This document shows, piece after piece, positions 16,732 to 53,034 of a DNA stretch of 64,000 nucleotides (positions are counted from its first letter, which is position 1; each line of letters opens with the position of its first letter). This stretch comes from an uncultured Clostridia bacterium. GTDB taxonomy: Bacteria; Bacillota; Clostridia; TANB77; CAG-508. The notes beneath the pieces were generated by a model, which saw only the letters and a list, made by a program, of their open reading frames with translations, had not been told where the DNA came from and searched no databases. The DNA is taken from NCBI GenBank assembly GCA_949746675.1, contig CATKDT010000049.1, forward strand, positions 1,214 through 65,213, in the 5' to 3' direction. A program made the translations under genes and the position numbers.

Positions 16732-16757
16732 TTTGTCTCCTTAAGACTTTTTATTAA

Positions 16758-17900: not shown

Positions 17901-17939
17901 ATTAAATTAGCCCTTTCTCTTAAGTAAATAACACAAATA

Positions 17940-19469: not shown

Positions 19470-20538
19470 TTTTGTTCTCCTCTACATTTAGTGCTTTATT
19501 TAAAAATTCATTTGTTCTCTTTCTTTCTTCTTCTAGTATTTCATATACATTACTATAATCACATTTTAGTTGTTCTTGTAATATCTTATTATTATATCTC
19601 CTGTCTTGCAAATGAAACTTATTTAATAAAGTATCTATCCTTGAATTCATACTTACATTATTATCTTCCCTTTCAAATACTATGAATGGTCTATTATAAA
19701 GTATTGAAAATACACAAGCATGGAATGAATCTGTACATATTAAAAATGCATTTTTTTCTAAATATAAAAATTCTGCTGGTCCAGTTTTATAAAATGGTGA
19801 ATTGCTATCTAACATATTAATTATCTTACATCCATTTTCTTTTGCAATCCTATCTATTTCATTTTTTCTTTTCTCTGATAATTCACCTAGAAAATAATTT
19901 AATATATATTTATCTGTTTTTAATTGTTCTGGCTTATTAGATACATTGTCCCATTCCTCAGCTGTTAATAACATCGTTGGGTCAACTAATACCTCAACAT
20001 CTTTTCTCCCTGTTAAGTCTTCTACTATTTTCTTTCCTGCTTCTTCTCTGACCGATATTTCTTTAAACTGCATTAATGCATCTTTTGCTTTCTTCTTGTA
20101 TTGTTCTGGTAATTCGCTAATCCCAAAGCTCGCAGAAAATGAAATTTTGTTTGTGCAATCAATATTACTTAATAAATCAAAGTTAGTTAATCGTCCTATT
20201 TTTGGATTCCAAACTTGATCACTTCCAACAATAAGATAATCAAATTCATTTAGATTATTAAAACCATTTAAATAAAATACTTTTTTTGTTTCTTCTATAT
20301 TTTCATTAAATTTAGCAAAGCACATTTTCCTTTCATTTTTTATTATAATTGTTTTAATTCTTGATAATAGATAATGTAATTTGTTTTTTATACTTAAACT
20401 TTTATTTAAATATCCAATATTTTTTATGGTTTTTACATCATAATAGTACTTCATAATATATTGTTGTACAGCATAATTCTGTAATCTATTTCCATAATTA
20501 TTGTAATCGTTTATAGTTATAATTCCTATCTTTTTCAT
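19456..20538 (-). CDS. polysaccharide pyruvyl transferase (CsaB/WcaK-like)
   Basis: MKKIGIITINDYNNYGNRLQNYA N-terminus. ~360 aa. Confidence 0.65.
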   Translation of the reverse strand: MKKIGIITINDYNNYGNRLQNYAVQQYIMKYYYDVKTIKNIGYLNKSLSIKNKLHYLLSRIKTIIIKNERKMCFAKFNENIEETKKVFYLNGFNNLNEFDYLIVGSDQVWNPKIGRLTNFDLLSNIDCTNKISFSASFGISELPEQYKKKAKDALMQFKEISVREEAGKKIVEDLTGRKDVEVLVDPTMLLTAEEWDNVSNKPEQLKTDKYILNYFLGELSEKRKNEIDRIAKENGCKIINMLDSNSPFYKTGPAEFLYLEKNAFLICTDSFHACVFSILYNRPFIVFEREDNNVSMNSRIDTLLNKFHLQDRRYNNKILQEQLKCDYSNVYEILEEERKRTNEFLNKALNVEENKIERK

Positions 20539-20554
20539 ATCTTCTCCTAAATTA

Positions 20555-21580
20555 TCATTGAAATGTTCTAAGTCTTAGTTTTTCTTTTATTTTGTATATT
20601 ATACGTAATAGTCTTTTTGCTTTAAACATTAATAATATATAGTTTATTCTTTCATATAAGTTAAGATTTTTATATATTCCTGATAATCCATTATATTCTT
20701 TATAATTCTTTATAATTTCTTCTATTTCATTTATTTCCTTTTTTTTGTTTTCTTGTCTTACTGCATTTGAAATTAATGTTGTATACATTCTAAATCTATT
20801 TTTTTTGTATCTAATATTTGTTAATTTCTCTAACTTATATTTATTTATTATTTCTATTAACTTATTATGATTATATAAATTTTTTGCCAAAGCATCTTCA
20901 GTATATTTATTCAATGCACTAGTTTGATTTCTATAATATTTGTACAAATTCTTGTCTATAATCGTTATATTGTGGGCATTACAATATAATTCTATCAAAA
21001 ACATGAAATCCTCACTTAATTGAATTTTCTCATCGAATGTTATACCAGTATCTTTTAAAAATGATATCTTTATTAGATTTCGCCAAACAGTTCCCCATAT
21101 AATAATATCATCATTCTTTTCTTTTCCAATCATTCTGGCAACCAGTTCTTTTTTTATTTCATCATTATTTAAATTTGTTTTGTTAATTGGTAAACTAATG
21201 TTTTTTTCTGTATTATTATAAACTTCAACATAATTACATATTGAAATATCCGCATTTTCTTCTACTATATTTTTATGCATCTCCTCTAAATAATTTGGCA
21301 TATATTCATCATCACTATCTATAAAAGTTATGTAGTCTCCTGTAGCCTTATATATTCCTATATTCCTTGCAGTTGATACTCCTTTGTTTTTTTGAGTTAT
21401 AACTATCATTTTATTATTTATATTTTCTTGTATTATTTCTAATGATTTATCTGTAGAACCATCATCTATAAATATTGCTTCATAATTTTCATATGTTTGA
21501 CTTTTTATACTTTTTATACATCTCTTAATATACTTTTCTGCATTATATACTGGTATTATAATACTAATCTTATCATTCAT
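20555..21580 (-). CDS. glycosyltransferase family 2
   Basis: IIIPVYNAEKYI...DDGSTD and a DSDD motif. Confidence 0.85.
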   Translation of the reverse strand: MNDKISIIIPVYNAEKYIKRCIKSIKSQTYENYEAIFIDDGSTDKSLEIIQENINNKMIVITQKNKGVSTARNIGIYKATGDYITFIDSDDEYMPNYLEEMHKNIVEENADISICNYVEVYNNTEKNISLPINKTNLNNDEIKKELVARMIGKEKNDDIIIWGTVWRNLIKISFLKDTGITFDEKIQLSEDFMFLIELYCNAHNITIIDKNLYKYYRNQTSALNKYTEDALAKNLYNHNKLIEIINKYKLEKLTNIRYKKNRFRMYTTLISNAVRQENKKKEINEIEEIIKNYKEYNGLSGIYKNLNLYERINYILLMFKAKRLLRIIYKIKEKLRLRTFQ

Positions 21581-22463
21581 ATTTCATAATCCTCCACAAA
21601 ACTGATGGAATATATAACAATATAGAATAAATTTTAGATGGAGTATTTTTTAATATACTTTTTTTGTTTGATATGCATATACTGTTAACATTAATTATTG
21701 TTTTTATTCTATTTTTTATTTTTATAGAAGTTTTATACTTTTTTAAGAATTCATATCTTAATTTAAATAATAACATACTTGTATTAAAGTTTCTCTTCCA
21801 GTTATTGTATATATTTTTTGTTAACCCATCTTCTTGATATTCAGAATAATATATACTATTATCATTGATATATAATAACTTACCTTTTTTTGATAAGTTT
21901 ATATACAATATCTCTTCACTTGCAAAATTCTCACCTTTTATCTCAGGAAAATAGTTGTTTTTTAGTACTTCTGTTTTTAATAAAATTCCTGTTTCTATAT
22001 TTTTATTTATCATATATTTAAAATCTGGTATATCTAACTTTACATTGTTTAAATTAATATTATTATATTTTTTTTCAATTCCGTTTCTCGGAAAAAAGAC
22101 TCCTAAAGTTTTATCGTCCTGTTCTATGTTGCTACCTTTTATATAATTATATAACTTTTCCACTGCTTGTTTATCTAGTATATCGTCACTGTCAACACAT
22201 ATAAAATATTCCGTTTTGCATTCTCTTACGGCTTTATTATGTGCAATATATTTTCCAGAATTTTCTTGATATATATATTCTATTTCAATTTCATTTTGTT
22301 CTTTTAGTAATCCTATATATTTATCAGTTTCATCATTCGAGCCATCATCTATAATAAGCCATACAAAATTTTTATTTATTTGTTGCCTTAACGAATTATA
22401 TAGTCTTACTAACAGATCTTTTCTGTTAAATGTTGGTGTAAATATCGTTATTTTGTTTTTCAT
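21573..22463 (-). CDS. glycosyltransferase family 2
   Basis: IFTPTFNR...IDDGSND and a DSDD motif. Confidence 0.85.
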   Translation of the reverse strand: MKNKITIFTPTFNRKDLLVRLYNSLRQQINKNFVWLIIDDGSNDETDKYIGLLKEQNEIEIEYIYQENSGKYIAHNKAVRECKTEYFICVDSDDILDKQAVEKLYNYIKGSNIEQDDKTLGVFFPRNGIEKKYNNINLNNVKLDIPDFKYMINKNIETGILLKTEVLKNNYFPEIKGENFASEEILYINLSKKGKLLYINDNSIYYSEYQEDGLTKNIYNNWKRNFNTSMLLFKLRYEFLKKYKTSIKIKNRIKTIINVNSICISNKKSILKNTPSKIYSILLYIPSVLWRIMKYE

Positions 22464-23526
22464 CTTTATTCACCTCAATATTATTAAATAGTGGAATTGC
22501 TAATAAAATTAATGATATATTCATTGATATGCTTGGAAAATAACTTTCTGTTAAACATGTTATATTAAAAAATAATAGTAACATCAGCTCCTTATTCATT
22601 TTTTTCTTGTATAAACTTCTACTCGTTTTTATTTCTAAAATACTTATTATTACAAAAGCAATAATTCCTCCCTCATATAAAAGAGAGATGTATCCATTAT
22701 CAATATTTACATATTTGTTTACTTCTGTAGTTCCAATAATACCTGGTCTCACTTTAGTAAGAATTGTATTATTATATTCTATTCTTCCAGAAAGAATAGA
22801 ATCTATTTTGTTAATAAATTCAATTTTTCCAAACATTAAACTTATAAATATAGTAATTAAAAATAAATATATATATGCATTTTTAGAAAACCATAATATA
22901 ATTTTTTTCATAATTCCTATATGCTTTTCTAAAAACACAATAATTAAGCACATAATTACAACCCAGTATCCTGTTCTTGAATATGTATATGAATACATAA
23001 TATAGTTTAATACTGCTATTGCTCCAATACTAAAAATATTAATCTTTTCATAATATAAATATAAATATAATATAGCTATTATCATAAACATTGCATGTGT
23101 TTCATTTGGATGTGAGTATCCAAATGTTTGTCTATTTAAAAATTGTCCATCTCTATAAAATAAAAATTGTGTATTCTCTATTATTCCAATAGAAGAACCC
23201 AAAATCATCATAACAAAAGTTATAATTTTTGCATAAAATACTACCTTTATTATATGCTTTAAATCTACATTTTTTAATCCACATAAAGTGATAACAGTAA
23301 ATAAAATTGTAGTAGTTTTCCCTATTAAATAGTCTAATATACCTATAGACAATAAACTAACCATTACTGCAATTTCTTTTTTAGAATACTTTTCCTTAAT
23401 TACTTTGTTAAATAAAATTATGCATCCAAATCCAAATGCAACTATATAAAATTTACTGCCTGCATTAAATCCTAATCCTTTTAGAACTGTTATTATTACT
23501 ATATAAATATCTATTATTTTTATCAT
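22426..23526 (-). CDS. Wzy-type repeat-unit polymerase / O-antigen ligase-like membrane protein
   Basis: 366 aa, ~10 TM helices. Sits between the GTs in a Wzx-containing locus. Confidence 0.6.
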   Translation of the reverse strand: MIKIIDIYIVIITVLKGLGFNAGSKFYIVAFGFGCIILFNKVIKEKYSKKEIAVMVSLLSIGILDYLIGKTTTILFTVITLCGLKNVDLKHIIKVVFYAKIITFVMMILGSSIGIIENTQFLFYRDGQFLNRQTFGYSHPNETHAMFMIIAILYLYLYYEKINIFSIGAIAVLNYIMYSYTYSRTGYWVVIMCLIIVFLEKHIGIMKKIILWFSKNAYIYLFLITIFISLMFGKIEFINKIDSILSGRIEYNNTILTKVRPGIIGTTEVNKYVNIDNGYISLLYEGGIIAFVIISILEIKTSRSLYKKKMNKELMLLLFFNITCLTESYFPSISMNISLILLAIPLFNNIEVNKDEKQNNDIYTNI

Positions 23527-24230
23527 TTTATCTTCAGCACCTTTTTAATAAATTGTTTTGTAGGAATTAAATAATATCCTATTTTTCTTATAATTTTATT
23601 GTTTGATTTCCAGCTTGCTGTATAATGATGTATTGAATATGTGTTTTGTGTTATTTTCAACTTGTTTGTCCCCATAACTTTTGGGCAGAAATATTCAATT
23701 GTATATATTATCATTCCATTAATATTTTGGATTTCATTAATTTCTTTCATTCCTTTTTCTTTTAATAATTTACTTGTTACTTCTACACATATTATTTTTC
23801 TAAAGTTTCCATTTTTATCTCTTGGATCATAAGTTTCATAATATTCTTTATTTTCTTTTATAATCGGATTGCCTTTTTTAGCTCCAAATCCTAATCCTGT
23901 CGCAACCTTTCCAACTTGCTCCATTCCCATATATCCATCACAATTTAACAATTCATCTAATGGCTTTAGTAGTTCAACATCTGTATCTAAATATATTCCA
24001 CCTTCATTATATATAACATCTAATCTCACATAATCTGTTAAGAATGCATATTTTTTATTTTCATAAGTATATTTTACATATTGATTTTTATTTATATCAT
24101 AATTATTTTCATTCCATTGTATTATCTCATAATCAGGACAATATTTTTTCCAGCTTTCTATACATTTTTTTGCTTCATTTGGAAGTTCTTTTCCTCCAAA
24201 CCAACAATAATGTATTTTCTTTGGTATCAT
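23523..24230 (-). CDS. glycosyltransferase (GT32-like, DXD sugar-binding region)
   Basis: IPKKIHYCWFGG...WNENNYD, the Gly_transf_sug signature. Confidence 0.7.
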   Translation of the reverse strand: MIPKKIHYCWFGGKELPNEAKKCIESWKKYCPDYEIIQWNENNYDINKNQYVKYTYENKKYAFLTDYVRLDVIYNEGGIYLDTDVELLKPLDELLNCDGYMGMEQVGKVATGLGFGAKKGNPIIKENKEYYETYDPRDKNGNFRKIICVEVTSKLLKEKGMKEINEIQNINGMIIYTIEYFCPKVMGTNKLKITQNTYSIHHYTASWKSNNKIIRKIGYYLIPTKQFIKKVLKIK

Positions 24231-24244
24231 AATTATTCTCCTTT

Positions 24245-24739
24245 TTAAAACAATTCTTCTACTTCCATCTTTAGTTTCTCTATAAATCTCTCATTATTGC
24301 TTTGTAAGTTTTGTGACATAACTTCTATCTTTTTATCATAATTTAAAATACTATCAATAATTTCTTCTTCCGTTTTAGCGACTATTATATTGTTCATTCT
24401 TTCTCTAACAGCTTCTGTAAATTCAACTTGATGGTCATTAACATGTTCGCTATATTCTAATTTACGTGGCACAACAATTGGAATTTTTCCTATTGTTAGT
24501 GGCATAATAAAGCTTGCTGGGCCACCATGTGTAATTATAATTCTGGCTTCCCTAATATATTTTTGCATAGCTTCATATGAAATTAATTTGTAACTTTCAC
24601 AGTTTTTGGGTTCATATTCTGTATATCCCTTTTGAATTATAACTTTTTCATTTATCTTATTTTCTGCAACCATTTTATCAATACATTTTAATAATCTATC
24701 AAATGGTTGCTCGTGAGTACCTACTGTAACAAAAATCAT
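24245..24739 (-). CDS. Alg13-like (Glyco_tran_28_C) glycosyltransferase subunit
   Basis: MIFVTVGT start. 164 aa. Confidence 0.75.
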   Translation of the reverse strand: MIFVTVGTHEQPFDRLLKCIDKMVAENKINEKVIIQKGYTEYEPKNCESYKLISYEAMQKYIREARIIITHGGPASFIMPLTIGKIPIVVPRKLEYSEHVNDHQVEFTEAVRERMNNIIVAKTEEEIIDSILNYDKKIEVMSQNLQSNNERFIEKLKMEVEELF

Positions 24740-24756
24740 AATTGCTCCTTTATTTT

Positions 24757-25230
24757 TTAAAATATACTTCCTAAATTTATTGCTTTTTTATATACTTTCT
24801 TCATCTCTTCCCATTGTACAATAAACTTGTCTGTTACTGGATATACTAACTTACCTGTAAGAGTCGATTTATCTATTCTATCAAATACTTCTATATATAC
24901 TGTTTTTGCTTTCATTAATTTTCCAATATAAAAAAATGGTACTGCAACTGCTGCTCCCGCAGATATTATTAAGTCTGGTTTCTCTTTTTTTAAAACTTTA
25001 ATTGCTAAAAATGTATTTTTAATTAAGTTTTTTATATTTCTATTTGTAGGAAAATAGCACTTGTATACTTTTTCATCTTTTAATAAACTTCTTGCATCTT
25101 CTTTATCAAAAGTAACCCAAAATCTATCGTTTTCTTCCCATAATGGTTTAAGCATATACAAATGAGCTAGATGTCCTCCTGAAGAACCCACTAAACAAAT
25201 TTTAAAATCCTTTATAGGTTTTCTTGACAT
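24757..25230 (-). CDS. Alg14-like glycosyltransferase subunit
   Basis: ICLVGSSGGH motif. 157 aa. Paired with the Alg13-like gene. Confidence 0.75.
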   Translation of the reverse strand: MSRKPIKDFKICLVGSSGGHLAHLYMLKPLWEENDRFWVTFDKEDARSLLKDEKVYKCYFPTNRNIKNLIKNTFLAIKVLKKEKPDLIISAGAAVAVPFFYIGKLMKAKTVYIEVFDRIDKSTLTGKLVYPVTDKFIVQWEEMKKVYKKAINLGSIF

Positions 25231-25268
25231 ATTCTTTCTCCTTATGCATCTATTAATATATTAAATTT

Positions 25269-26393
25269 CTACTCTCCATCTCCCTCATGGTATCCTGTCT
25301 TTGTTTCAATACTATTGCTTATTGTCTTTATCTCATCAGGAACAATATATTCTTGATTATCAAATACCTCTTTATGTAACCTTTCAACATTACTCTCAAG
25401 TGTACAAGGTATACCATACCATGCATCTAAAGTCTTGCCTTTTGTGTCATAAGGGAAACCTATTCCCTCGCCAAAACTTACTTTTATAGCAGTTGGTATT
25501 AGTGATAAAATATCATTTGTTGATATATTAGTTTTTACATAAGGTAATACTGAGTTTGCTAATGTTTTTAATTGTGATAAACTTTGTGTTTTAGCCTTGG
25601 CAACAATAGCCTCAATAACTGCTCTTGTTCTTTCTGCCCTTCTGTAATCTCCAGCGTCTTTTCTGATACGAGCATAAGTTACAGCTTGTACACCATCAAC
25701 AGTTTGCTCTCCAGATCTTGTTATATATTTTGCCTTTTTTCCAGCAACTCTAGCGGTTTCAGCAATGTATTCATTTATGTAATTTATTTCTGATTGTTTT
25801 ATGTTAAGTGTTACTCCTCCTAATTGGTCTACTGCTGTTGCAACTGCTTGAAAATTTACTGCTACATATTCTTTTATGTTTAAATCTAAATTTGTATTAA
25901 GTGCTAATAATGCATTTTGTGGTCCACCATAAGCATAAGCATGTGTTATCTTATCTAATCTATTTTTACCTTTTTCTTTTATTTGTAAATATGTGTCTCT
26001 ATATACAGAAATAAGCTTTACCTCGTTTGTCTTTTCATTTATACTTGCTATTACTATACAATCACTTCTGTTTCCTGATCCATAGTCATTTTCTCTACTA
26101 TCTATTCCAAGTAAAGCTATATTTCTGTAGCCTTTTAAGTTCTTTTCTGATACTGTATCTATCCCTATCTGTGAGGTATCAATCGCTTCATGATTTATCT
26201 TTCCTAGAATTTCTTCAACAAAATTCCATCCACCTGCAATTACACCTGCAACTATTATTAGCAATATAATTAATATCAATAATATAGCTTTTGTGACTCT
26301 ATGTCCTTTGTATCTTTTATTTTTCTTTTTAGATTTTTTACCTTTTTTTGACATATACCTCATCCCTTTCGCTTTGCTCAAGACACACCTCAA
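25269..26393 (-). CDS. LytR-CpsA-Psr (LCP) family glycopolymer ligase
   Basis: Basic N-terminus, single TM, LCP domain. The true start is probably an internal ATG (MSKKGKK, ~26354). Confidence 0.8.
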   Translation of the reverse strand: MRCVLSKAKGMRYMSKKGKKSKKKNKRYKGHRVTKAILLILIILLIIVAGVIAGGWNFVEEILGKINHEAIDTSQIGIDTVSEKNLKGYRNIALLGIDSRENDYGSGNRSDCIVIASINEKTNEVKLISVYRDTYLQIKEKGKNRLDKITHAYAYGGPQNALLALNTNLDLNIKEYVAVNFQAVATAVDQLGGVTLNIKQSEINYINEYIAETARVAGKKAKYITRSGEQTVDGVQAVTYARIRKDAGDYRRAERTRAVIEAIVAKAKTQSLSQLKTLANSVLPYVKTNISTNDILSLIPTAIKVSFGEGIGFPYDTKGKTLDAWYGIPCTLESNVERLHKEVFDNQEYIVPDEIKTISNSIETKTGYHEGDGE

Positions 26394-26441
26394 AATGAAA
26401 TGTGCCTTTTTCGCCCTTAATTTTGTAATTATGTCACCCTT

Positions 26442-27332
26442 TTATTTCTTATCTTCATTAAAAAATTCATTTATTTGTTTTAATACTTTATATGTATCCT
26501 CACTTATTTCTTTTGATGAATTTTTAGTTTTTTTAACACTTATATTTTTGAATAAGTCATCTGATTCTTTATCTAAAAAGGTTGATGGCATTGCTGCTGT
26601 CCTTTTAGGAACATATTTAGTTTTATCTTGTTTGTCCTTTGAGTTATAATAATATGCTTGTTCATATTCTCTAGATTCCATTGGCATCTTATTTAATATA
26701 ACCCCTAATATTTTTCCACCAACATTTTCAATATTAGTAATAATTCTTTTTAATCCTTCTTTTTTAGTTTCTTCATGTGCTGTAACTATAAGTGTAAAAT
26801 CAACTATTCTTGATAATATTAACGAATCTGTTACTAATTGACTTGGTGTTCCATCTATTATAACTATATCACAAACTTCTTTTGCTATATCTAATAACTC
26901 AGTCATTTGTGGTAATATTAACAACTCTGATGGATTTGGTGGTACACTTCCTGATGCTATTAAATACAAGTTTTTTACTGATGTCTTTTGTATATATGAT
27001 GTTATATCTTTATTTATAATTCTATTTCCATCATCATCTACATTTGATAGATAATTAGAAAGTCCTGGCTTTTGTGATACTTTAAATATATTACTTTGCC
27101 TTCCTTTTCTCATATCAGCATCTATAAGTAAAACTCTTTTACCAGCTTGTGCAAATGCAACTGCTAAATTAGATGATATCCAACTTTTTCCTTCTTCTGC
27201 ATATGCTGATGTAATAAGTATTAGTTTTGCTTCTTGCTTTGCATCCATAAATTGTATATTTGTTCTTATTGTTCTAAATATCTCAGAAATTGGTGATTTT
27301 GGATCTTTTAATACTATTAAATCTTGTGTCAT
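26442..27332 (-). CDS. BY-kinase (second copy)
   Basis: Walker A AEEGKSW and a C-terminal Y-rich region. Confidence 0.9.
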   Translation of the reverse strand: MTQDLIVLKDPKSPISEIFRTIRTNIQFMDAKQEAKLILITSAYAEEGKSWISSNLAVAFAQAGKRVLLIDADMRKGRQSNIFKVSQKPGLSNYLSNVDDDGNRIINKDITSYIQKTSVKNLYLIASGSVPPNPSELLILPQMTELLDIAKEVCDIVIIDGTPSQLVTDSLILSRIVDFTLIVTAHEETKKEGLKRIITNIENVGGKILGVILNKMPMESREYEQAYYYNSKDKQDKTKYVPKRTAAMPSTFLDKESDDLFKNISVKKTKNSSKEISEDTYKVLKQINEFFNEDKK

Positions 27333-28052
27333 TTATTTTCTTCCTCTTTTCTTAGATTTTTTTGTATTTCCTTCACAAATTGGTATTGTTGCCAATACAG
27401 GTTTATGATATATTCTTTCTACATCTTCTATTGTTTTTATTGTAGTATCAAACATATTTAAAACTACAACATAACCTATAGAGATAATTATTCCTACTCC
27501 TGTAAATATTAGCATATTTTTCTTTTTATTTACATTTGATGGGGAATTATTAGGCTCAGCTTTATCTACTACTTGCACATTTTCTATTTTATATAATTCT
27601 TCTTGCATTTCTTTTATGAATATACTTGCTATCTCATTTGCTATATCTGCTGCAAGTTTTGGATCAGAATTTGTTACTGTTATTTCTATTAATTCTGTAT
27701 CATTAATTACGTTAACTCGTATATTTCTTTTTAGTACATCTTCATTAATATCAATATGTAAATTAGCTATTGCTGGTCTTAGTATTCTTTTACTTTTTAT
27801 TAATTCTCTATAAGTTGACACCAGTTTTGAATTTACTCTTATTTCCATTTCTGTTGATGATTCAATACTTCCTGACATGTTGTCATTATTTGATGATGCC
27901 AACAACAAACTTGTTGATGCACTATATACTGGCTTTACGAATTTAGTTATATATATTAATCCTATAATCATAAATAATAATATGATTATTGCTATCTGTA
28001 TTTTTTTGCTCCAAAATATTTTGAATAATTCCATTAAATCTATTTCTTCCAT
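27333..28052 (-). CDS. Wzz/CpsC chain-length determinant (second copy)
   Basis: 2 TM helices. Abuts the kinase. Confidence 0.8.
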   Translation of the reverse strand: MEEIDLMELFKIFWSKKIQIAIIILLFMIIGLIYITKFVKPVYSASTSLLLASSNNDNMSGSIESSTEMEIRVNSKLVSTYRELIKSKRILRPAIANLHIDINEDVLKRNIRVNVINDTELIEITVTNSDPKLAADIANEIASIFIKEMQEELYKIENVQVVDKAEPNNSPSNVNKKKNMLIFTGVGIIISIGYVVVLNMFDTTIKTIEDVERIYHKPVLATIPICEGNTKKSKKRGRK

Positions 28053-28316: not shown

Positions 28317-30458
28317 ATGAATAACGAAAATAATGATGATTTTTTACCAGGTGTTGGTCCTATAGATAATAATATTCCTAGTTCACCTGATAACTTTGAC
28401 CCTAATATGAATGGTGGTTTTGATCCCAATATAAATGTTAATAACTTTGACCTTAATATGAATGCTGGTGTCGACCCTAATATAAATAATAATAACTTTG
28501 ATCCTAATATGAATGCTAATAATTTTGATCCTAATACAAATCTTGGTTTCAATCCTAATGTAAATAATTTCGATCCTAACATGATGCAAAATCAGTTTGA
28601 CCCAAACATGGGACAAGCTCCTTTTGATATGAATCAAAATCCTAGTATGGATCCAAATATGGTACAACCACCTTTTGATATGAACCAAAATTTTAATATG
28701 GATCAAACTCAATTTGACCCTAATATGAATGCTAACAATTTTGATCCTAATGTAAATAATAACTTTGACCCTAATGCAAATAATTTCGATCCTAACATGA
28801 TGCAAAATCAATTTGACCCAAACATGGAACAAGCTCCTTTCGATATGAATCAAACTCCTAACACGGATCCAAATATGATACAATCTCCTTTTGATATGAA
28901 CCAAAACCTTAATATGGATCAAAATCAATTTGACCCTAATATAATTAATAATAACTTTGATCCTAATATGAATCTTGGTTTCGATCCTAATGTAAATAAT
29001 AACTTTGACCCTAATGCAAATAATCTCGATCCTAACATGATGCAAAATCAATTTGACCCAAAGATTGGACAAGCTCCTTTTGATATGAATCAAAATCCTA
29101 ACATGGATCCAAATATGGTACAACCACCTTTTGATATGAGCCAAAACATTAATATGGATCAAAACCAATTTACTCCTAATATGAACAGTGAATTTAATCC
29201 TGATGTGAATAATAATTTTGAACAGGACACTATTTCTTCTAATTATGCTGAGGATTTTGAAAGAAATTGGATGGGATCAATCTATGATAAAGCACATTCT
29301 AAGAAGTTTAACTTCTGTGCCGCATTTTTTGGACCAGCATATCTATTTTATAGAAAAGTATATCTTACAGGTGGTTTAACAGCATTAATACTTATTATTA
29401 TAAACATTATAATTTCATTATTAAAATTAAATAATGTAGGACTTATTCTAGGAATTAATGCCATTATTATGTTAATATATTTCTTTGGCTTAGGATTTGG
29501 ATTTTACCCTATTTATAGAGATTTTGTACACAAACAATTTAATAAATATAAAAAACAAATTCCTGATAATAACCAACTAATTGCACTTGCAAACAAAAAA
29601 GGTGGTACTTCAATTTTAGCTTTAATAGTTTATTACATTGCTAATTCTGTTGTAGTTACCATTATGGTATATGCAATGTTTGCCTCACTGATGTCTGATT
29701 TATTTGGTAAATTACCTCCTCAATCAAACATTACTAGCAATAATAATATTGAAAATAACACTAATGTTATATCTAATGAAACTCAAGATGAAGCAACATT
29801 CTCATTTACAGATGGTTATGAATTAATATATCCAGATAGTACTTGGGTTGTTGGAGCTGATAAAAAATCATTAATTAAGGGTGCCTATACACTAACATAT
29901 ACTGTATCATATAAAGCAAGTGATCTAGGTGTTACTGATATGTCTACTGCTGAGGGACGATCATCTATATTATCAATTATTAATAACTCAGTAACTAGCT
30001 TAGCCACTACTAATAATCTTCAAATGGATCCTAACGATAACTTTGTATCTTCTAATGGAACTTATTATACTTATATTAATTTATCAAGTGATACAGAAAC
30101 TACACGTTATTACTTTGTTCTTCTACCAGCTGAAGAAACATTGTTCCAATTTGAACTAAAAATAAATGATACAACAGTTCAGTCAGATACTCATTTAGAG
30201 ATTACTAAAATTTTAACAAAAATTTCTAATACTTCTTCTGCTAATAACTTACCTAATGGAAATACAGTTACCGATAATACAATTACAAATGATACAGTTA
30301 CTGATAACTCAACTACAAATAACACAGTAACAGGAGACAATAATGCTGTTTCAAATAACATTACATCAAATGAAGTTAATAATATGGTTTCAGAAAATAA
30401 TACTACAACACCAAATAATACTTCTATATCAAATGTTCTTAGAAACACAAGTATATAA
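28317..30458 (+). CDS. Asn/Pro/Met-rich tandem-repeat membrane protein with central 2-TM (DUF2628-like) segment and Thr/Asn-rich C-terminal extracytoplasmic domain
   Basis: AGGAGG SD. ~35 copies of FDPN(M/V)N arranged in three ~72-80-aa super-repeats. The TM segment contains FNFCAAFFGPAYLFYRK. Confidence 0.7.
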   Translation: MNNENNDDFLPGVGPIDNNIPSSPDNFDPNMNGGFDPNINVNNFDLNMNAGVDPNINNNNFDPNMNANNFDPNTNLGFNPNVNNFDPNMMQNQFDPNMGQAPFDMNQNPSMDPNMVQPPFDMNQNFNMDQTQFDPNMNANNFDPNVNNNFDPNANNFDPNMMQNQFDPNMEQAPFDMNQTPNTDPNMIQSPFDMNQNLNMDQNQFDPNIINNNFDPNMNLGFDPNVNNNFDPNANNLDPNMMQNQFDPKIGQAPFDMNQNPNMDPNMVQPPFDMSQNINMDQNQFTPNMNSEFNPDVNNNFEQDTISSNYAEDFERNWMGSIYDKAHSKKFNFCAAFFGPAYLFYRKVYLTGGLTALILIIINIIISLLKLNNVGLILGINAIIMLIYFFGLGFGFYPIYRDFVHKQFNKYKKQIPDNNQLIALANKKGGTSILALIVYYIANSVVVTIMVYAMFASLMSDLFGKLPPQSNITSNNNIENNTNVISNETQDEATFSFTDGYELIYPDSTWVVGADKKSLIKGAYTLTYTVSYKASDLGVTDMSTAEGRSSILSIINNSVTSLATTNNLQMDPNDNFVSSNGTYYTYINLSSDTETTRYYFVLLPAEETLFQFELKINDTTVQSDTHLEITKILTKISNTSSANNLPNGNTVTDNTITNDTVTDNSTTNNTVTGDNNAVSNNITSNEVNNMVSENNTTTPNNTSISNVLRNTSI
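28389..29217 (+). repeat. in-frame tandem DNA repeats (~216-240 bp unit x3, built from an 18-bp FDPNMN sub-repeat)
   Basis: Near-identical blocks begin at 28563, 28779 and 29019. Confidence 0.8.
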
Positions 30459-32010: not shown

Positions 32011-32355
32011 CTACATTATATCTTTTATAGCATCTCCTATAATTTTATTAACATCATACATTAATTTATTAAATGCTATTTCATTATCAAAATATTCTTT
32101 TATATCTTTATTTTCAATAAGTACATTATATAACCTTGCCAATTTTACTTTTTTATCTTCTTCATCCACTTCTTTATTGTCTTTTCTTTTTAATTCAATT
32201 ACTTGAACTTCTTGCTTTAGTTTTTCAAACTCTTCTATTAATTCTTTTTTTTCTGGAATTGACATTAGTGCTTCTTTAGATTTCTTTAATGCTTTATATT
32301 GCATAGAATTTCTTATTTCTTCTGCTAGTCTGTTAGCTGTATCATAAATTTCCAT
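32011..32355 (-). CDS. small helical protein (YlbF/YmcA-like?)
   Basis: 114 aa, charged coiled-coil. Weak family assignment. Confidence 0.35.
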   Translation of the reverse strand: MEIYDTANRLAEEIRNSMQYKALKKSKEALMSIPEKKELIEEFEKLKQEVQVIELKRKDNKEVDEEDKKVKLARLYNVLIENKDIKEYFDNEIAFNKLMYDVNKIIGDAIKDIM

Positions 32356-32524: not shown

Positions 32525-33817
32525 CTATGCATAAGCATTTCTTTTTCTGAAAGTAAGTAGATTTGATAAATCCTTTGCAGGATTTGAGCTTTGTTCTGCC
32601 TTATTTGCTCTTTCTTGCATAATCTTTTCAGCTTGCTTTTGTGCTTCTGTCTTACAAATAGCTTGTTCATATACATAATGTGTATCTTGTGCAATTTTAT
32701 TCCAGTTATATAAATCTTTAACTTTTTTAACAGCATTTTTTGATATTGTATCACATAATTTTGCGTCAAATAATAGTGCAAGTATCGAATCTGCTATTGA
32801 ATTACTGTTACCAGCATAACTCTTCATTCCATTTACTCCATGGTCAACTATTTCATTTAATCCTCCAACATCTGATACAACTGTTGGTATTCCAGCAAGC
32901 ATTGCTTCAAGTGCTACTATTCCAAATGGCTCATATGTACTTGGAAACACTGCCATATCAGCACATTTATACATTTTTTGTACTTTTGTAGAGTCACAAT
33001 ATCCTGCAAAATATACCTTATTTTCAATTCCTAAATTTTTAACTTCTTGCTTTAATTCATCTATCATTCCACCTTTTCCACATATTACAAGCTTAGAATC
33101 ATGATAGTTCTGAAGAACCTTTGGCATTGCTCCTATTAAATTTTGAATTCCTTTTTCATAAACTAAACGACCAACATATAGTATTATTTTTTCATTATCC
33201 ATTGCAAATTGTCTTCTAAAATCATAGTCTCTCTCAATACCAGAAAAATTATTCAAATTTACCCCATTTGGTATTACATTTATTTTTTCATAAGGTAGTC
33301 CAAATATTCTTTGTAAATCGCCTTTCATAAAGTTGCTATTTACTATTACTTCAGTTGATTCATATGTTAATAGCCATTCTGAATCATTTATGTATCTTTG
33401 TGTTTCATCATGTATTCCAGAATTTCTTCCATTTTCAGTTGCATGTATTGTTGATACTAAAGGGATATCAAATGAATTTTTTAATGCTTTTGCTGAGTAT
33501 GTTACTAACCAATCATGTGCATGTATTACATCAAACTTTCCATTTTTTGTAATTATCTCTGTTGCTTTAGCTACCATATTAAAATTTAGTTGCATTATCC
33601 AATCTATAAAATTATTAGGATGTATCATATAGTTATCTACTCTATAAACATCTACACCTTTGTCATTTTCATAATATGGTGTATTTCCATCTCTATACGT
33701 TATTACAGTTACATCATGTCCATCATTTATCATCCTATGCGATAAATCATGTACAACTCTAGCTATTCCTCCTACAATTCTTGGTGGATACTCCCATGTT
33801 AACATTAAAATTTTCAT
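32525..33817 (-). CDS. GT4 glycosyltransferase, glycogen/alpha-glucan synthase-like
   Basis: MKILMLTWEYPPRIVGGIARVV N-terminus and the EX7E region. Confidence 0.75.
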   Translation of the reverse strand: MKILMLTWEYPPRIVGGIARVVHDLSHRMINDGHDVTVITYRDGNTPYYENDKGVDVYRVDNYMIHPNNFIDWIMQLNFNMVAKATEIITKNGKFDVIHAHDWLVTYSAKALKNSFDIPLVSTIHATENGRNSGIHDETQRYINDSEWLLTYESTEVIVNSNFMKGDLQRIFGLPYEKINVIPNGVNLNNFSGIERDYDFRRQFAMDNEKIILYVGRLVYEKGIQNLIGAMPKVLQNYHDSKLVICGKGGMIDELKQEVKNLGIENKVYFAGYCDSTKVQKMYKCADMAVFPSTYEPFGIVALEAMLAGIPTVVSDVGGLNEIVDHGVNGMKSYAGNSNSIADSILALLFDAKLCDTISKNAVKKVKDLYNWNKIAQDTHYVYEQAICKTEAQKQAEKIMQERANKAEQSSNPAKDLSNLLTFRKRNAYA

Positions 33818-34022
33818 TATTTAATGCCCCTTTCATACTATTCTCTTTCGTTGTTTTTTTCACATACACTTTTTCCTTTTTATATTCTATACATAAATTT
33901 TAGAAATGTAAATATAATTCGACAAATTTTTTTATTTTTTTTCTTTTTTCTATTGCTAAAAAGTTTCTGTTGTTATATTATATAATGAGTTAAAATATGA
34001 TTATTACCAAGGAGGAAAAACG

Positions 34023-35282
34023 TTGCCAAAGTCAAGTATTGAAAAAACAAACGATATTGAAGAAAAGAAAGTAACTCGTACTAAAAAGGCTACTACTTCA
34101 AAAAAATCTGATACAAAGGTTAGTTCTAAAACTGACTCTAAAAAAGTTGAACCTAAGACTACAGTAAAAGCCAAAAAGGATACTACTACTAAAACTAAAA
34201 AATCAACTACTAAAGTAGCTGATAAAGCAGTTGTTAGTGAAGAACCTAAAAAAGCAAAAGCTACAACAAAAAGAAAAACAACTACTAAGGCAACTACAAA
34301 TGCCTCTAAAAAAGTTGATGCAAAGGTTAGTTCTAAAACTGCATCTAAAAAGGTTGCTTCTAAAAAAACTGAGACTAAGGCTACTTCCAAAAAGGCTGAA
34401 AGCAAGACAACAAAAAAGATTGAATCTAAAACTACTTCTACTAAAAAAGTTGAACCTAAGGCTACAGTAAAAGCCAAAAAGGATACTACCACTAAAACTA
34501 AAAAGGCAACTACTAAAACTAAGAAAAAAGTTGAAGACACTCTTCCTAAAGTAAAAAAAGAAGTTAAGAAAACTACAACTAAATCCAAGAAAACAACTAA
34601 AAAAGTTGAACCTAATGTTAAGGATAAAGTAAAAAAGATTGTTACAAAAGCTAAAGAAAAAATTAACAATCTTACATCAACCTTTTTAGATATAGTTGAA
34701 TATTATGACTTACCTTATAGATATAACAAAACAGTTGTTAAAGTTCTAGCTCAAGATCCTAATACTCTATTTGTTTATTGGGATTTGAATGACAATGATT
34801 TACAATACTTTAAAGAAATGTATGGTAATAATTTCCTTTATATAACTAAGCCAGTTCTAGTTGTACATAATATTACTGATGGCTACTCATTTGAAATTGA
34901 TATAAATGATTTTGCAAATAATTGGTACATTCATGTAAATGACACTAAATGTAGATATGTTGTTGAACTAGGTAGACGTCCAAACCAAAGTGATGAAATA
35001 TTTAATATTCAAAATAATGAACCTACCCAATTTGTAAAAATATTATCTTCTAATGAAATTGAAAATCCTAATGACCATGTTTTATATTATGAAAATAAGC
35101 AAAAATTACATTTTAAAAATGTAAAAACTAACGCAATTACAACAAGAATAATTGATAATAAACATAAAAAAGATTTTGCAGAAATTTATAAATACTTTAG
35201 TTTTGATGAAACTTCTGATAATAATAAATTTGATTTTGAAAATCCTAGTTCAAATAATCCAACTTCAAATGTTATGAAATAA
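34023..35282 (+). CDS. DUF4912 protein with Lys/Thr-rich histone-H1-like repetitive N-terminal tail
   Basis: TTG start with an AGGAGG SD. N-terminal ~220 aa are KKxTTK repeats. The C-terminal ~190 aa (YYDLPYRYNKT...YWDL) match DUF4912. Confidence 0.7.
   Translation: MPKSSIEKTNDIEEKKVTRTKKATTSKKSDTKVSSKTDSKKVEPKTTVKAKKDTTTKTKKSTTKVADKAVVSEEPKKAKATTKRKTTTKATTNASKKVDAKVSSKTASKKVASKKTETKATSKKAESKTTKKIESKTTSTKKVEPKATVKAKKDTTTKTKKATTKTKKKVEDTLPKVKKEVKKTTTKSKKTTKKVEPNVKDKVKKIVTKAKEKINNLTSTFLDIVEYYDLPYRYNKTVVKVLAQDPNTLFVYWDLNDNDLQYFKEMYGNNFLYITKPVLVVHNITDGYSFEIDINDFANNWYIHVNDTKCRYVVELGRRPNQSDEIFNIQNNEPTQFVKILSSNEIENPNDHVLYYENKQKLHFKNVKTNAITTRIIDNKHKKDFAEIYKYFSFDETSDNNKFDFENPSSNNPTSNVMK
34100..34520 (+). 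repeat. imperfect in-frame tandem repeats encoding K/T-rich tail
   Basis: Blocks repeat at ~207 and ~303 bp offsets (for example 34144 versus 34447). Confidence 0.6.
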
Positions 35283-35356
35283 TTTGAACTACTTTATAAA
35301 TAAAAGCTTTATTGAATATAATTTTATATTCAATTATATGAAGGGATAAATTAAGT

Positions 35357-36982
35357 ATGAACAAAAATATAAAAGGATATGTAAGTTTTGTACTACATGC
35401 TCATTTGCCATTTATACACCATCCAGAAAGTGAAGATTATCTTGAAGAACAATGGCTTTTTGAAGCTATGTCCGAAACATACATTCCTCTAATTTTAAAT
35501 TTTCAAAAATTAATTGATGAAGGTGTGGATTTTAGGATGACTATGTCACTTACTCCACCTCTTTTAAATATGCTTGATAATAAACTTTTGCAACAACGTT
35601 ACATAAAATACTTAAATACACATATTGAATTAGCCACTAAAGAAATTGAGAGAACTAAAGATAATCCAAGAATTAATAAATTAGCACATTATTATGTTGA
35701 CAGATACTCTAATGATTTACATATTTTTAGAGATGTTTATAATTGTAATATTATTAACGCTTTTAAAAAGTTTAATGATTTAGGTGTACTTGAAATTATA
35801 GGTTGTGGTGCAACTCATGGATATTTCCCTATTTTATATTTAAATGAGAAAACTGTTAGAGCTCAAATTGCTCTAGGTGTTCAAACTTATAATAAATATT
35901 TTAATAAACCTATTAAAGGTTTTTGGCTTCCCGAATGTGGGTATGTTCCTGAAGCTGATCAATACTTAAAAGAGTTTGGCATTGAATATGTTCTTGTTGA
36001 AACACATGGTGTTCTTTATGCTGATCCTACTCCCCTTTATGGAACTTATGCTCCAATTGTATCACCTGGTGGAGTTGTTGCTTTTGGTCGAGATTTGGAA
36101 TCTTCACGTCAAGTATGGAGCTCTATTAATGGTTATCCTGGGGATTTTAATTATAGAGAATTTTATCGTGATATAGGTTATGATGCTCCATATGATTATA
36201 TTAAACCGTATATTGCTTGTAATGGAGTTAGAGTTAATACTGGTATAAAATATCACCGTATAACTGGTAAGTTTGAAGAAAAAGATATCTATGATCTACA
36301 GTGGGCACAAGATTCAGTTAATAAAAATGCTGGACATTTCTTTGATAGTAGATGTTCTCAAATTGATAACTTATGCCTACATACAGAAAATCCTCCAATT
36401 ATATTATGTCCTTATGATGCAGAACTTTATGGTCATTGGTGGTATGAAGGTCCTGACTTTTTATACACTCTTTCTAAAAAGATTTATTATGATAATTGTA
36501 ATTTTGCTTTAATTACTCCACATGAATATATTGATAAATATCCAAATATGCAAATTTCATCTCCTTGTCGTTCTAGTTGGGGTGCTAAAGGCTATAGCTA
36601 TGTATGGTTAAATCCTACTAATGATTATGTCCCTCGTCATTTACATACTGCTGGAGATAGAATGTGTGAACTTGCTTATATGTATCCTAACGAACCTGAA
36701 GATTCTATAAAGCGTAGAATTTTAAATCAATGTGCCCGTGAACTTGTACTTGCTCAAAGTAGTGATTGGCTATTTATTATTACGAATGGAACTATGGTTG
36801 ATTATGCTAAAAAAAGAATTAAAGACCACATTGGCAGATTCACAAAATTGTATCTATGGCTTAAAGAGGATGAAGATTTAAAAAATAATAATGAACTTTC
36901 TGAAAACAAATTAAAAGTTCTTGAAAATATCGAAGAAAAAGATTGTATATTTCCAGAACTTGATTATATGATTTATTATTAG
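35357..36982 (+). CDS. glycoside hydrolase family 57 (alpha-glucan branching/amylase-type)
   Basis: FVLHAHLPF N-terminal GH57 signature. 541 aa. Confidence 0.8.
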   Translation: MNKNIKGYVSFVLHAHLPFIHHPESEDYLEEQWLFEAMSETYIPLILNFQKLIDEGVDFRMTMSLTPPLLNMLDNKLLQQRYIKYLNTHIELATKEIERTKDNPRINKLAHYYVDRYSNDLHIFRDVYNCNIINAFKKFNDLGVLEIIGCGATHGYFPILYLNEKTVRAQIALGVQTYNKYFNKPIKGFWLPECGYVPEADQYLKEFGIEYVLVETHGVLYADPTPLYGTYAPIVSPGGVVAFGRDLESSRQVWSSINGYPGDFNYREFYRDIGYDAPYDYIKPYIACNGVRVNTGIKYHRITGKFEEKDIYDLQWAQDSVNKNAGHFFDSRCSQIDNLCLHTENPPIILCPYDAELYGHWWYEGPDFLYTLSKKIYYDNCNFALITPHEYIDKYPNMQISSPCRSSWGAKGYSYVWLNPTNDYVPRHLHTAGDRMCELAYMYPNEPEDSIKRRILNQCARELVLAQSSDWLFIITNGTMVDYAKKRIKDHIGRFTKLYLWLKEDEDLKNNNELSENKLKVLENIEEKDCIFPELDYMIYY

Positions 36983-52026: not shown

Positions 52027-53034
52027 TTATGAAAAATACACTATTTTATTATTAGGAAAATATATCTTCATCATATCTCTAAAAAATATTTCTCCTTCTT
52101 CTCTTACAAACTGATTATAAGTATACTTTCCCTTTCCTCTTACTTTCATAAGTTCTTTGTTATATAAATCTATTGCATTAGGAAAAGCTTCATCATTTAT
52201 CATTTTATGAATATAACTATATGTCATAAATATAAATTCAAAAAATACTTTTTGTCTTGCTTTTTTAGTTAATAGTTCATTTAACTCTTTAAATAATTCT
52301 TCATATAACTCTTTCCAATTATCTAAAAAAATGATTGGTGCAACTAATATTCCTACTTTATAGTCTGCTTCTACTAGTTTATTAATTGCTTCTATTCTTT
52401 GTTTTAATCTTGATGTTCCAAATTCAACTTTATTTATTATTTCTTCGGGATTAACACTCATTCTTATAATAATCTTACCTTGGTGGTCAAGTCCTAAAAT
52501 AGAATCTACCATATCAAATTTTGTGGGAAATGTAAGTTTTCCTTTTGGAGAATTTTTAAAGTTTTCTATTGTCCATACTAAATTATTTGTTATCGTATTT
52601 TCTAATATTAAATCACTATTACTTCCAATTTCAAATACATAGTTTTGTTCATTATCATTTGCTGTTTTTATTATTTTATATAACATCTGCTCTCTATTAA
52701 CAAATAGTCTTAAATATGAACATTTATTATAATTACATACTAAATAACAATACATACACATTGCAATACATCCTGAAGATGTATATGGTACTAAGAAATT
52801 TGAGACTTTAAAATTTGGAGTATACCTATGTGTTTTTCTTGTTGCAATTATTAAATTTCTTTTCATTTTTGGAAATTCTGAATTTTGCTTTTTTCTCATC
52901 TCCTCAATATTATTATGATTATCAATTATAATTTTAGGAACATCTTTATACTTTTTAAATAATTCCTTTCCTAGTTGATAATCTTTAACTTCTTTTTCAT
53001 AATATATTTTTTCTGGAATAAACATTTTAATCAC
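52027..53034 (-). CDS. splB: spore photoproduct lyase (radical SAM)
   Basis: CIAMCMYC (Cx3Cx2C). Overall colinearity with SplB, including the C-terminal FPNNKIVYFS. Confidence 0.85.
   Translation of the reverse strand: MIKMFIPEKIYYEKEVKDYQLGKELFKKYKDVPKIIIDNHNNIEEMRKKQNSEFPKMKRNLIIATRKTHRYTPNFKVSNFLVPYTSSGCIAMCMYCYLVCNYNKCSYLRLFVNREQMLYKIIKTANDNEQNYVFEIGSNSDLILENTITNNLVWTIENFKNSPKGKLTFPTKFDMVDSILGLDHQGKIIIRMSVNPEEIINKVEFGTSRLKQRIEAINKLVEADYKVGILVAPIIFLDNWKELYEELFKELNELLTKKARQKVFFEFIFMTYSYIHKMINDEAFPNAIDLYNKELMKVRGKGKYTYNQFVREEGEIFFRDMMKIYFPNNKIVYFS

Follow-up and report, generated by a model that had tools for sequence, protein, structure and literature searches.

The 64,000-nucleotide stretch of DNA analysed here (contig CATKDT010000049.1 of assembly GCA_949746675.1, from an uncultured Clostridia bacterium; hereafter the window) carries three neighbouring genes encoding a glycogen-synthase-like glycosyltransferase of family GT4, a DUF4912 protein with a long lysine-rich N-terminal tail and an α-glucan branching-enzyme-like protein of family GH57. 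The conclusion best supported by gene order and comparative sequence analysis is that the DUF4912 protein works together with its GH57 neighbour in α-glucan metabolism, because the two genes keep a tightly spaced order in at least three distant lineages, have other glucan enzymes as neighbours and show signals of co-transcription. The focus of interest is this deeply conserved pair, made up of a DUF4912 protein with an interchangeable N-terminus and a GH57 enzyme of the so-called loop-less type, rather than the particular tail found in this gene. An earlier note on this DNA, written from the sequence alone, had described the three genes as an α-glucan module; all three open reading frames (ORFs) are present exactly where it had placed them (Table 1), and the metabolic assignment is plausible. 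The G+C content is 22-32% along the window, where the majority of the genes are on the minus strand, and the genome is very A+T-rich (27% G+C).

The DUF4912 gene had been said to start with a TTG codon preceded by a strong Shine-Dalgarno sequence, and both direct reading and homology agree with this. The TTG at position 34023 is the sole in-frame start ahead of the DUF4912 domain, the later ones, codons 255 and 266, lying within it, and a GGAGG motif lies no further than 20 nucleotides from the start in 74 of 77 DUF4912 orthologues. This start is favoured because the N-terminus MP[RK]K that it yields is kept in most of 80 related species, each represented by one metagenome-assembled genome (MAG) of uncultured gut Clostridia, and because TTG is also the start codon in 6 of the 77 orthologues. 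The protein has neither a signal peptide nor a hydrophobic N-terminus and is therefore likely to be cytoplasmic. An antisense ORF of 221 residues opposite the tail (34004-34669, minus strand), with runs rich in Phe, Leu and Val, was discarded as an artefact and not a gene, the reverse complements of Lys and Thr codons containing no stops.

In the related genomes the GH57 gene lies directly downstream of the DUF4912 gene and on the same strand in every one of the 68 cases with flanking sequence, the gap having a median of about 60 nucleotides, whereas the GT4 gene is adjacent and divergent upstream of DUF4912 in only 23 of these 68 genomes; a GlgP-type phosphorylase is the upstream neighbour in three loci. 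The DUF4912-GH57 pair is the invariant unit and GT4 the variable element, so that the synteny of the first two genes stated in the earlier note holds throughout the clade, and beyond it in Thermotogota and Halobacteroides, while the link to GT4 is correct for the window and for a minority of its relatives. The two genes also look co-transcribed, as had been supposed, because they are separated by 74 nucleotides without a terminator (a scan of the plus strand between them found none) and a conserved promoter precedes DUF4912. The pattern TTGNNN-17-TANNNT, typical of sigma-A promoters, precedes the DUF4912 start at 74 of the 77 loci, compared with about 10 of 77 after shuffling, and in 72 of those 74 it is placed 28-44 nucleotides upstream of the start codon. 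Judged from these signals, the pair is probably an autonomous, constitutively transcribed two-gene unit. The only conserved promoter element found is of this housekeeping, sigma-A-like type, with no tie to sporulation, although no scan was aimed at sporulation-specific promoters. The source organism is itself probably a spore former, since the window encodes a spore photoproduct lyase (52027-53034, minus strand; PF20903, E = 8e-63). The spacer between the two genes contains a hairpin with a perfect 10-bp A+U stem (UUGAAUAUAA / UUAUAUUCAA), without a U-tract and with a minimum free energy of -13.2 kcal/mol (z = -2.0), which could modulate translation or processing; an Rfam scan of the 30-38 kb region returned no RNA family. 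In 31 of 63 related loci the GH57 gene is followed on the same strand by a ytxC-like gene (e.g. locus L024, 3180-4058; PF08812, E = 6.6e-50), a position that is occupied in the window by clpX, convergent to GH57.

The pairing was followed beyond the clade starting from the Thermotoga maritima GH57 enzyme AmyC, whose sequence was rebuilt from a PDB alignment and searched, the genomic context of the matches then being inspected. In all five distant contexts the GH57 gene has a DUF4912 gene as its immediate upstream neighbour. The gap is 4 nucleotides in contigs whose AmyC is 99% identical to the crystallised T. maritima enzyme (DUF4912 partial, at the contig end), in a Thermotoga-like species (DUF4912 of 242 residues) and in Petrotoga olearia (261 residues); the genes overlap by 8 nucleotides in Kosmotoga pacifica (250 residues) and are 42 nucleotides apart in Halobacteroides halobius (222 residues). 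This distribution suggests that the pairing is ancient. Halobacteroides is the clearest case of a DUF4912 gene embedded in a glucan gene cluster: one strand of CP003359 (locus L085, 3757-10247) encodes a GT5-like GlgA of 501 residues, the DUF4912 protein, a GH57 protein of 550 residues and a GlgP-type phosphorylase of 849 residues.

The GH57 protein of the window falls into the branching-enzyme-like group by its matches to PF03065 (142.9 bits) and BE_C (PF09210, DUF1957; 114.3 bits), carries the motif HAHLPF at residues 13-18 and is acidic (pI 5.6, net charge -16). It can be aligned end to end and without gaps with AmyC (PDB 2b5d, E = 4e-154), its Glu193 (in ECGY) and Asp354 (in YDAEL) aligning with AmyC Glu185 and Asp349, which we take to be the catalytic pair. 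It thus resembles AmyC both in conserving the catalytic Glu and Asp and in lacking the flexible loop and the β5-β6 strands; compared with the Pyrococcus horikoshii and Thermococcus kodakarensis enzymes it is short by about 16 and about 10 residues at the sites of strands β5-β6 and of the loop that is flexible. Two NCBIfam branching-enzyme equivalogs score it far below their cut-offs, namely NF041133 (Thermococcales; 332 versus 1000 bits) and NF041566 (Thermus; 263 versus 920 bits). In PMC9291813, 'true' GH57 branching enzymes are characterised by a flexible loop of 17-22 residues over the active site together with the β5-β6 strands, and on that description the window protein is not one of them and belongs to the loop-less AmyC type. 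The same paper reports that the loop-less type accounts for 92% of GH57 branching-enzyme-like sequences and that its members assayed alone, including those of T. maritima and K. pacifica, show low or no activity on amylose; its authors consider the in vivo substrate unknown and question the role in glycogen branching itself. As an isolated enzyme, AmyC is described in PMC6616209 and PMC9291813 as a branching enzyme with low branching and high hydrolytic activity. Term searches within these two papers returned no mention of the upstream DUF4912 gene, and those within the AmyC paper no discussion of gene context.

The GT4 protein has the architecture of GT4 enzymes of the GT-B fold, with an N-terminal Glyco_transf_4 domain (114 bits) and a C-terminal Glycos_transf_1 domain (157.8 bits, E = 2.4e-46), both above the Pfam cut-offs, and also matches Glyco_transf_5, the N-terminal catalytic domain of starch synthases (75 bits versus a cut-off of 22.7). 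Its best NCBIfam model, glgA_Coryne (TIGR02149), reaches 165 of the 302 bits of its cut-off, and the nearest solved structures are remote, with E-values of 1e-22 to 1e-27 for sucrose-phosphate synthase, MshA, BshA, Pyrococcus GlgA and GlgM (PDB 6tvp, E = 3.6e-22). On these matches the label 'glycogen-synthase-like' seems reasonable. A comparable mycobacterial pair is Rv3032 (GT4) and Rv3031 (GH57) of the methylglucose lipopolysaccharide locus, at which we know of no reported DUF4912 gene. The product of the mycobacterial locus is a small methylated oligosaccharide, and the score of the window GT4 with the related glgA_Coryne model does not reach its cut-off. The likeness consists in the linkage of a GT4 α-1,4-glucosyltransferase to a loop-less GH57 branching-enzyme-like protein which is described as inactive on amylose in vitro (PMC9291813). 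GT4 genes beside GH57 genes have been regarded as uncharacterised candidate synthases, the role of GT4 enzymes in glycogen metabolism being unresolved (PMC11046441). Just downstream of the GT4 gene, between it and asnS, lies a gene of the YlbF/YmcA family (32011-32355, minus strand; Com_YlbF, E = 1e-21), which keeps its place beside GT4 in two relatives (loci L081 and L082).

The DUF4912 domain itself was recognised by PF16258 at residues 234-324 (61.4 bits versus a cut-off of 29.4), a model that is matched by all 65 aligned relatives; a tblastn search of the domain against plasmids gave no match. The exact protein of the window is not on record in public assemblies, although a library of 50%-identity representatives holds one that is 100% identical. 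In an AlphaFold model the domain region reaches a mean predicted local distance difference test (pLDDT) score of 81.5, with blocks in the 90s over domain residues 11-120, and consists mostly of β strands predicted to form a sandwich that contains an inserted helix; a C-terminal segment of low confidence comes after it. A Foldseek search against the PDB retrieved only FN3/Ig-like domains, the best being FN3 monobodies (E of about 1e-3, target-normalised TM score 0.64), and a sequence search of the PDB with the family profile yielded nothing significant, only FN3 or Ig entries at E of about 0.2-0.4. The predicted fold would suit a binding module, for protein or for polysaccharide, without saying which. 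Across phyla the family shares the motifs LPxxY, PxxxxxYxYW and SNxxxxP. Although the C-terminal segment is modelled with low confidence and predicted to be disordered, residues N407, P408, S409 and S410 are near-invariant in 65 representatives, and the Kosmotoga pacifica orthologue likewise has NPSS close to its C-terminus; we consider this motif a candidate docking peptide.

The N-terminal tail, described in the earlier note as extremely basic and about 220 residues long, proved to span residues 1-225, with 32% Lys, 21% Thr, 9% Ser, 7.6% Ala and 2.7% Pro (Ala plus Pro 10%), a net charge of +50 and a pI of 10.3; beyond it the protein is acidic (pI 5.2). With a 65-sequence alignment, AlphaFold predicts residues 1-204 without secondary structure (block-mean pLDDT 35-56), in front of a confidently folded domain. 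A comparably long basic segment is found in no other ORF of the window, and the possibility that such segments are a general habit of the organism was rejected for these 64 kb. That the tail is encoded by tandem DNA repeats was an overstatement: TRF detected only a 24-nucleotide unit in 2.2 copies (score 58, 34462-34513), the clearest repeat is a 77-nucleotide duplication whose copies stand 303 nucleotides apart and not in tandem, and residue autocorrelation revealed a weak 9-residue periodicity (z of about 2.4-2.8 at lags 9, 18 and 27). A clean tandem array was rejected on this evidence, and the tail is low-complexity sequence. The resemblance to histone H1 or AlgP, also proposed before, stood as far as the Lys-rich composition is concerned but not further. 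Scanned alone against Pfam at E up to 10, the tail gave no match to H1/H5, HC2 (PF07382) or Rho_N, and matches no Pfam family; the full-length protein gave no match to Rho_N (PF07498) at E up to 0.01; and the tandem KPAA/AAKP-type Ala/Pro/Lys repeats that define tails of the AlgP/PhaF type are absent. With the chlamydial H1-like HC2 model two homologues reach 25-27 bits against a cut-off of 40, and 2 of 65 members match at E < 0.01. The likeness is thus compositional only, and imperfect at that, with Thr and Ser where H1 and AlgP use Ala and Pro.

The same note was worded as if the tail were a peculiarity of this gene and had suggested that DUF4912 homologues be surveyed for basic tails. Our survey found the tail to be clade-wide, being present in 79 of the 80 related species, with a length of 75-374 residues (median 122), 20-37% Lys, 21-44% Ser plus Thr, 2-18% Ala plus Pro and a net charge of +18 to +53; only 2 of the 79 tails exceed the 225 residues of this gene. 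Among the 120 closest proteins in a collection of 5.8 billion, 116 carry an N-terminal extension rich in Lys, Thr, Ser and Ala of about 60-156 residues, and the best 150 representatives at 50% identity mostly have a long extension before the domain, up to 374 residues, which was rich in the same four amino acids in 33 of the 34 that were inspected. The exception among those inspected (P0138, 428 residues) has a non-basic N-terminal extension of 223 residues (9% Lys) that looks like a different, possibly folded region and could result from a swapped domain or from an error in ORF calling. The first residues read MPRKTKE in most species and MPKSSIEK in the window. In the closest relative, a mouse-gut MAG, the flanking DNA is 91-96% identical to that of the window, the GT4 and GH57 proteins 97% and the DUF4912 domain 91%, while the central part of the tail cannot be aligned at the DNA level and its length is 255 instead of 225 residues. 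Charge and composition are therefore conserved while sequence and length turn over fast, a pattern that we read as the signature of a functional disordered polycation under compositional, not sequence, selection.

Outside the clade the N-terminus takes other forms. In Thermotogota it is of the type 'SIQELRKLAKMLGLKLKRTMKKRDLIKLL', which Pfam Rho_N scores at 17-20 bits, just below its threshold of 24.9. Of 22 Kosmotogaceae-type homologues, 7 bear a precomputed annotation that combines Rho_N and DUF4912, and beyond these two further orthologues give sub-threshold Rho_N matches. Cyanobacterial DUF4912 proteins have been discussed as 'Rho-like' proteins that possess the Rho N-terminal domain without the RNA-binding and ATPase domains of Rho (PMC13613805). 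These Thermotogota and cyanobacterial proteins have the same C-terminal domain family as the window protein, with the motifs LPxxY, YxYW and SNxxxxP, and in Thermotogota they hold the same place directly upstream of an AmyC-type GH57 gene; they differ in bearing a folded Rho_N-like motif of about 45 residues within a total of about 240-260, whereas the window protein has its disordered polylysine tail within 419. An element of the nucleic-acid-binding type thus recurs at the DUF4912 N-terminus in two unrelated forms, though not universally, and the tail of the window is the extreme polylysine version of this module. The presence of a Rho_N-like motif at the same N-terminal position counts, indirectly, in favour of the polycation idea for the tail.

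The explanation that we put forward, tentatively and as a whole at somewhat less than an even chance, is that DUF4912 is a two-part accessory protein of the AmyC-type GH57 branching or transferase enzyme, co-transcribed with it from its own housekeeping-type promoter. The FN3-like β-sandwich, perhaps together with the NPSS peptide, would dock onto the GH57 enzyme and/or the growing α-glucan, and the N-terminal part would be an exchangeable polyanion-binding module, consisting of a Rho_N-like helix-extended-helix in Thermotogota, and reportedly in cyanobacteria, or of a disordered tail of Lys, Thr and Ser in this clade. The tail would bind nucleic acid, either nucleoid DNA or RNA, in a non-specific manner, and this binding may localise, space or nucleate glucan synthesis, as in the cases of PhaM, PhaF and AlgP. 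A physical contact of DUF4912 with GH57 or GT4, an effect on enzyme activity and the ligand of the tail are all inferred here. In a more demanding version, which we regard as rather doubtful, DUF4912 is the missing obligate subunit of loop-less GH57 enzymes, activating the enzyme or redirecting it to nascent α-glucan and, by means of its exchangeable N-terminal module, tying the synthesis of glycogen or granulose to the nucleoid; it would be a PhaM-like organiser for the bacterial storage polymer that is most widespread.

Lys-rich disordered tails that tether storage granules to the nucleoid are known from PhaM and PhaF (PMC9049629, PMC3556143) and from AlgP (PMC11894788). PhaM of Ralstonia eutropha (Cupriavidus necator), which is associated with the polyhydroxybutyrate synthase PhaC1, attaches the granules to the nucleoid through a Lys-rich histone-like terminal region and sets their number and size (PMC3556143, PMC9049629). 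PhaF of Pseudomonas putida and AlgP of P. aeruginosa combine a structured granule-binding part with a long, disordered, H1-like domain of Lys-rich repeats that binds DNA and spaces or segregates polyhydroxyalkanoate or polyphosphate granules (PMC9049629, PMC11894788); in AlgP 54 KPAA-type repeats, hypervariable in number, space the polyphosphate granules on the nucleoid (PMC11894788). These would be analogies of mechanism and not homologies. PhaM serves a polyester, has a short C-terminal tail of PAKKA motifs and no DUF4912 domain, and the tails of PhaF and AlgP are C-terminal, Ala/Pro-rich and built of KPAA/AAKP units, unlike the N-terminal, Thr/Ser-rich and weakly periodic tail of the window; homology is lacking in either case.

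Several observations weigh against the accessory-protein explanation. The fold match is a generic FN3/Ig one at E of about 1e-3 and does not point specifically to the binding of carbohydrate or of an enzyme. In the same genomes the DUF4912 domain is about 57% identical to that of the window, as compared with about 84% for GH57 and GT4, and so much faster a divergence would be unusual for an obligate enzyme subunit. The tail, rich in Lys, Thr and Ser, is unlike the Lys/Ala/Pro-rich tails with validated DNA binding and fails to match the H1 and HC2 models. Most Rho_N matches fall below the Pfam cut-off, and contacts with proteins can be mediated by such motifs as well. The N-terminus of the Halobacteroides protein is Gln/Ser-rich and non-basic, so that a polyanion-binding module is not universal in the family. 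Finally, glycogen is uncharged, and what would be gained by tethering it is speculative.

The tail could instead serve the same GH57 partner as a charged brush or a condensate scaffold and not as a nucleoid binder, which we consider unlikely. It might coat glucan particles in a phasin-like manner, keeping them small and separate, or co-condense with RNA, polyphosphate or acidic lipid to nucleate granules. A long, fully disordered segment of very high charge density is what such a role would call for, and the wide range of tail lengths at conserved composition is expected if bulk physical properties are what counts. AlgP, moreover, localises to polyphosphate granules, which have been described as condensates (PMC11894788), and the acidity of the GH57 protein permits electrostatic contacts within the molecule or the complex. 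The idea is disfavoured because the Thermotogota proteins have a small folded Rho_N-like motif where the tail would be, which could bind a nucleic acid but would be unable to form a brush or a multivalent condensate; in addition, the annotated parts of the window showed no polyphosphate genes close to the locus.

The tail might also have expanded as low-complexity sequence in a largely neutral way, through slippage at A-rich Lys and Thr codons during replication, and be tolerated at the N-terminus because the function resides wholly in the DUF4912 domain. The extremely fast turnover of its length and sequence even between near-identical genomes is in line with this, as are the internal 77-nucleotide duplication, the degenerate repeats, the A+T-rich genome, the absence of a basic module from Halobacteroides and the short Rho_N-like motif in place of the tail in Thermotogota. 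Drift, however, would give frameshifts, losses and mixed charge, but 79 of the 80 species, whose domains have diverged to about 45-60% identity, all keep an open frame, a similar Lys content, the MPRKTKE start and a charge that never falls below +18, and such a segment occurs in no other ORF of the window. We find this alternative improbable because positive charge is universally retained.

DUF4912 could, on the other hand, be a nucleic-acid-binding regulator of glucan gene expression rather than an enzyme subunit. N-terminal modules of the nucleic-acid-binding type, whether Rho_N-like or Lys-rich, recur in the family, its gene is situated at a divergent promoter region in this clade, and PhaF and PhaM have also been described as regulators (PMC9049629). 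Yet the 4-nucleotide gaps and the overlaps with GH57 across phyla suggest that the two proteins are produced together in stoichiometric amounts, as is typical of complexes rather than of regulators. Since, moreover, no recognisable DNA-binding fold is present in the conserved FN3-like sandwich and the tail is devoid of features of sequence specificity, we judge a regulatory role very improbable.

The last alternative, that the Thr/Ser-rich tail is a protein primer, O-glucosylated and elongated with α-1,4-linked glucose by the neighbouring GT4 in a glycogenin-like way, is hardly credible: the Ser and Thr content of every tail in the clade, the adjacency of GT4 in the window, the inclusion among GT4 enzymes of O-glycosyltransferases of Ser-rich-repeat proteins (the match to the SdgA model being weak) and the unknown priming of GT4-type glucan synthases, whose part in glycogen metabolism has not been settled (PMC11046441), speak for it, but GT4 adjoins in only the 23 of 68 genomes mentioned above, Thermotogota and Halobacteroides orthologues lack a Ser/Thr-rich tail and keep the GH57 pairing, the replacement by Rho_N in Thermotogota disfavours this idea as well, and at 27% G+C Thr and Ser are cheap small residues in place of Ala and Pro, the dominant conserved property being charge.

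Should DUF4912 indeed be an accessory protein of GH57, the consequences would reach beyond this clade. The great majority of GH57 'branching enzymes' are reported to be loop-less; these are near-inactive alone and have a physiological role that is acknowledged as an open question in PMC9291813. Their weak activity in vitro and the uncertainty about their role could then be explained by an absent partner. The alternation of Rho_N-like and polylysine modules would suggest that α-glucan synthesis is spatially organised on a polyanion, a principle established for polyester and polyphosphate granules and not for glycogen. A function would also be assigned to a widespread DUF, the one discussed in cyanobacteria as a 'Rho-like' protein (PMC13613805). 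In the searchable full-text literature DUF4912 is named in only two papers, neither of which deals with glucan, and no paper joins the Rho termination factor with glycogen or with family 57.

Table 1. Positions of the features discussed (coordinates are those of the window).
Feature	Position	Strand	Basis
GT4 glycosyltransferase gene, glycogen-synthase-like, 430 residues, divergent from the DUF4912 gene	32525-33817	-	Pfam
Putative sigma-A-type promoter of the DUF4912-GH57 unit: -35 TTGCTA (33953-33958), 17-nucleotide spacer, -10 TATTAT (33976-33981)	33953-33981	+	Consensus scan
Shine-Dalgarno sequence AAGGAGG, 7-nucleotide spacer to TTG	34009-34015	+	Direct sequence reading
DUF4912 gene, 419 residues	34023-35282	+	PF16258
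Polycationic N-terminal tail of the DUF4912 protein, residues 1-225, predicted disordered	34023-34697	+	Composition, AlphaFold
77-nucleotide internal duplication in the tail, copy 1	34138-34214	+	Repeat search, 95% identity to copy 2
77-nucleotide internal duplication in the tail, copy 2	34441-34517	+	Repeat search
DUF4912 domain region, residues 226-419: predicted FN3/Ig-like β-sandwich, then C-terminal disordered segment	34698-35282	+	PF16258, AlphaFold
C-terminal NPSS motif, residues 407-410, candidate docking peptide	35241-35252	+	Conservation in 65 representatives
DUF4912-GH57 spacer, 74 nucleotides, with A+T-only hairpin (35311-35334) and GAAGGG ribosome-binding site	35283-35356	+	Terminator scan, folding
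GH57 gene, α-glucan branching-enzyme-like, loop-less AmyC type, 541 residues	35357-36982	+	Pfam GH57 and BE_C
CpsB/CapC phosphatase, probable capsule or exopolysaccharide cluster	12218-12979	-	
GT28 C-terminal domain protein, same probable cluster	24245-24739	-	
LytR-CpsA-Psr protein, same probable cluster	25269-26393	-	
Tyrosine-kinase-like P-loop protein, same probable cluster	26442-27332	-	
Wzz chain-length determinant, same probable cluster	27333-28052	-	

Some other features of the window deserve mention. An ORF of 713 residues (28317-30458, plus strand) begins with about 300 residues of degenerate, FDPNMN-like repeats rich in Asn, Asp, Pro and Met, continues with a DUF2628 membrane segment and ends in an Asn/Thr-rich C-terminus; the relatives represented by loci L081 and L082 likewise have genes for DUF2628 proteins, of 619-670 residues, at a distance of a few kb from the glucan genes and beside asnS. 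Asparagine synthase (42650-44477, minus strand) is split into two overlapping ORFs, one for the glutamine amidotransferase (43842-44477) and one for Asn_synthase (42650-43858), which could mean that the gene is frameshifted, has become a pseudogene or is truly split. On the minus strand, between 7015 and 11944, an ORF of 1125 residues that gave no Pfam match at E up to 1e-5 stands beside genes for a protein with a cohesin domain (10548-11195) and for a sortase (11255-11944), and the three may form an assembly at the cell surface. Next to them, at about 12200-28050 of the same strand, lies the probable capsule or exopolysaccharide cluster whose members are listed in Table 1, for which the annotation covers the ORFs up to 13 kb and from 24 kb onwards.

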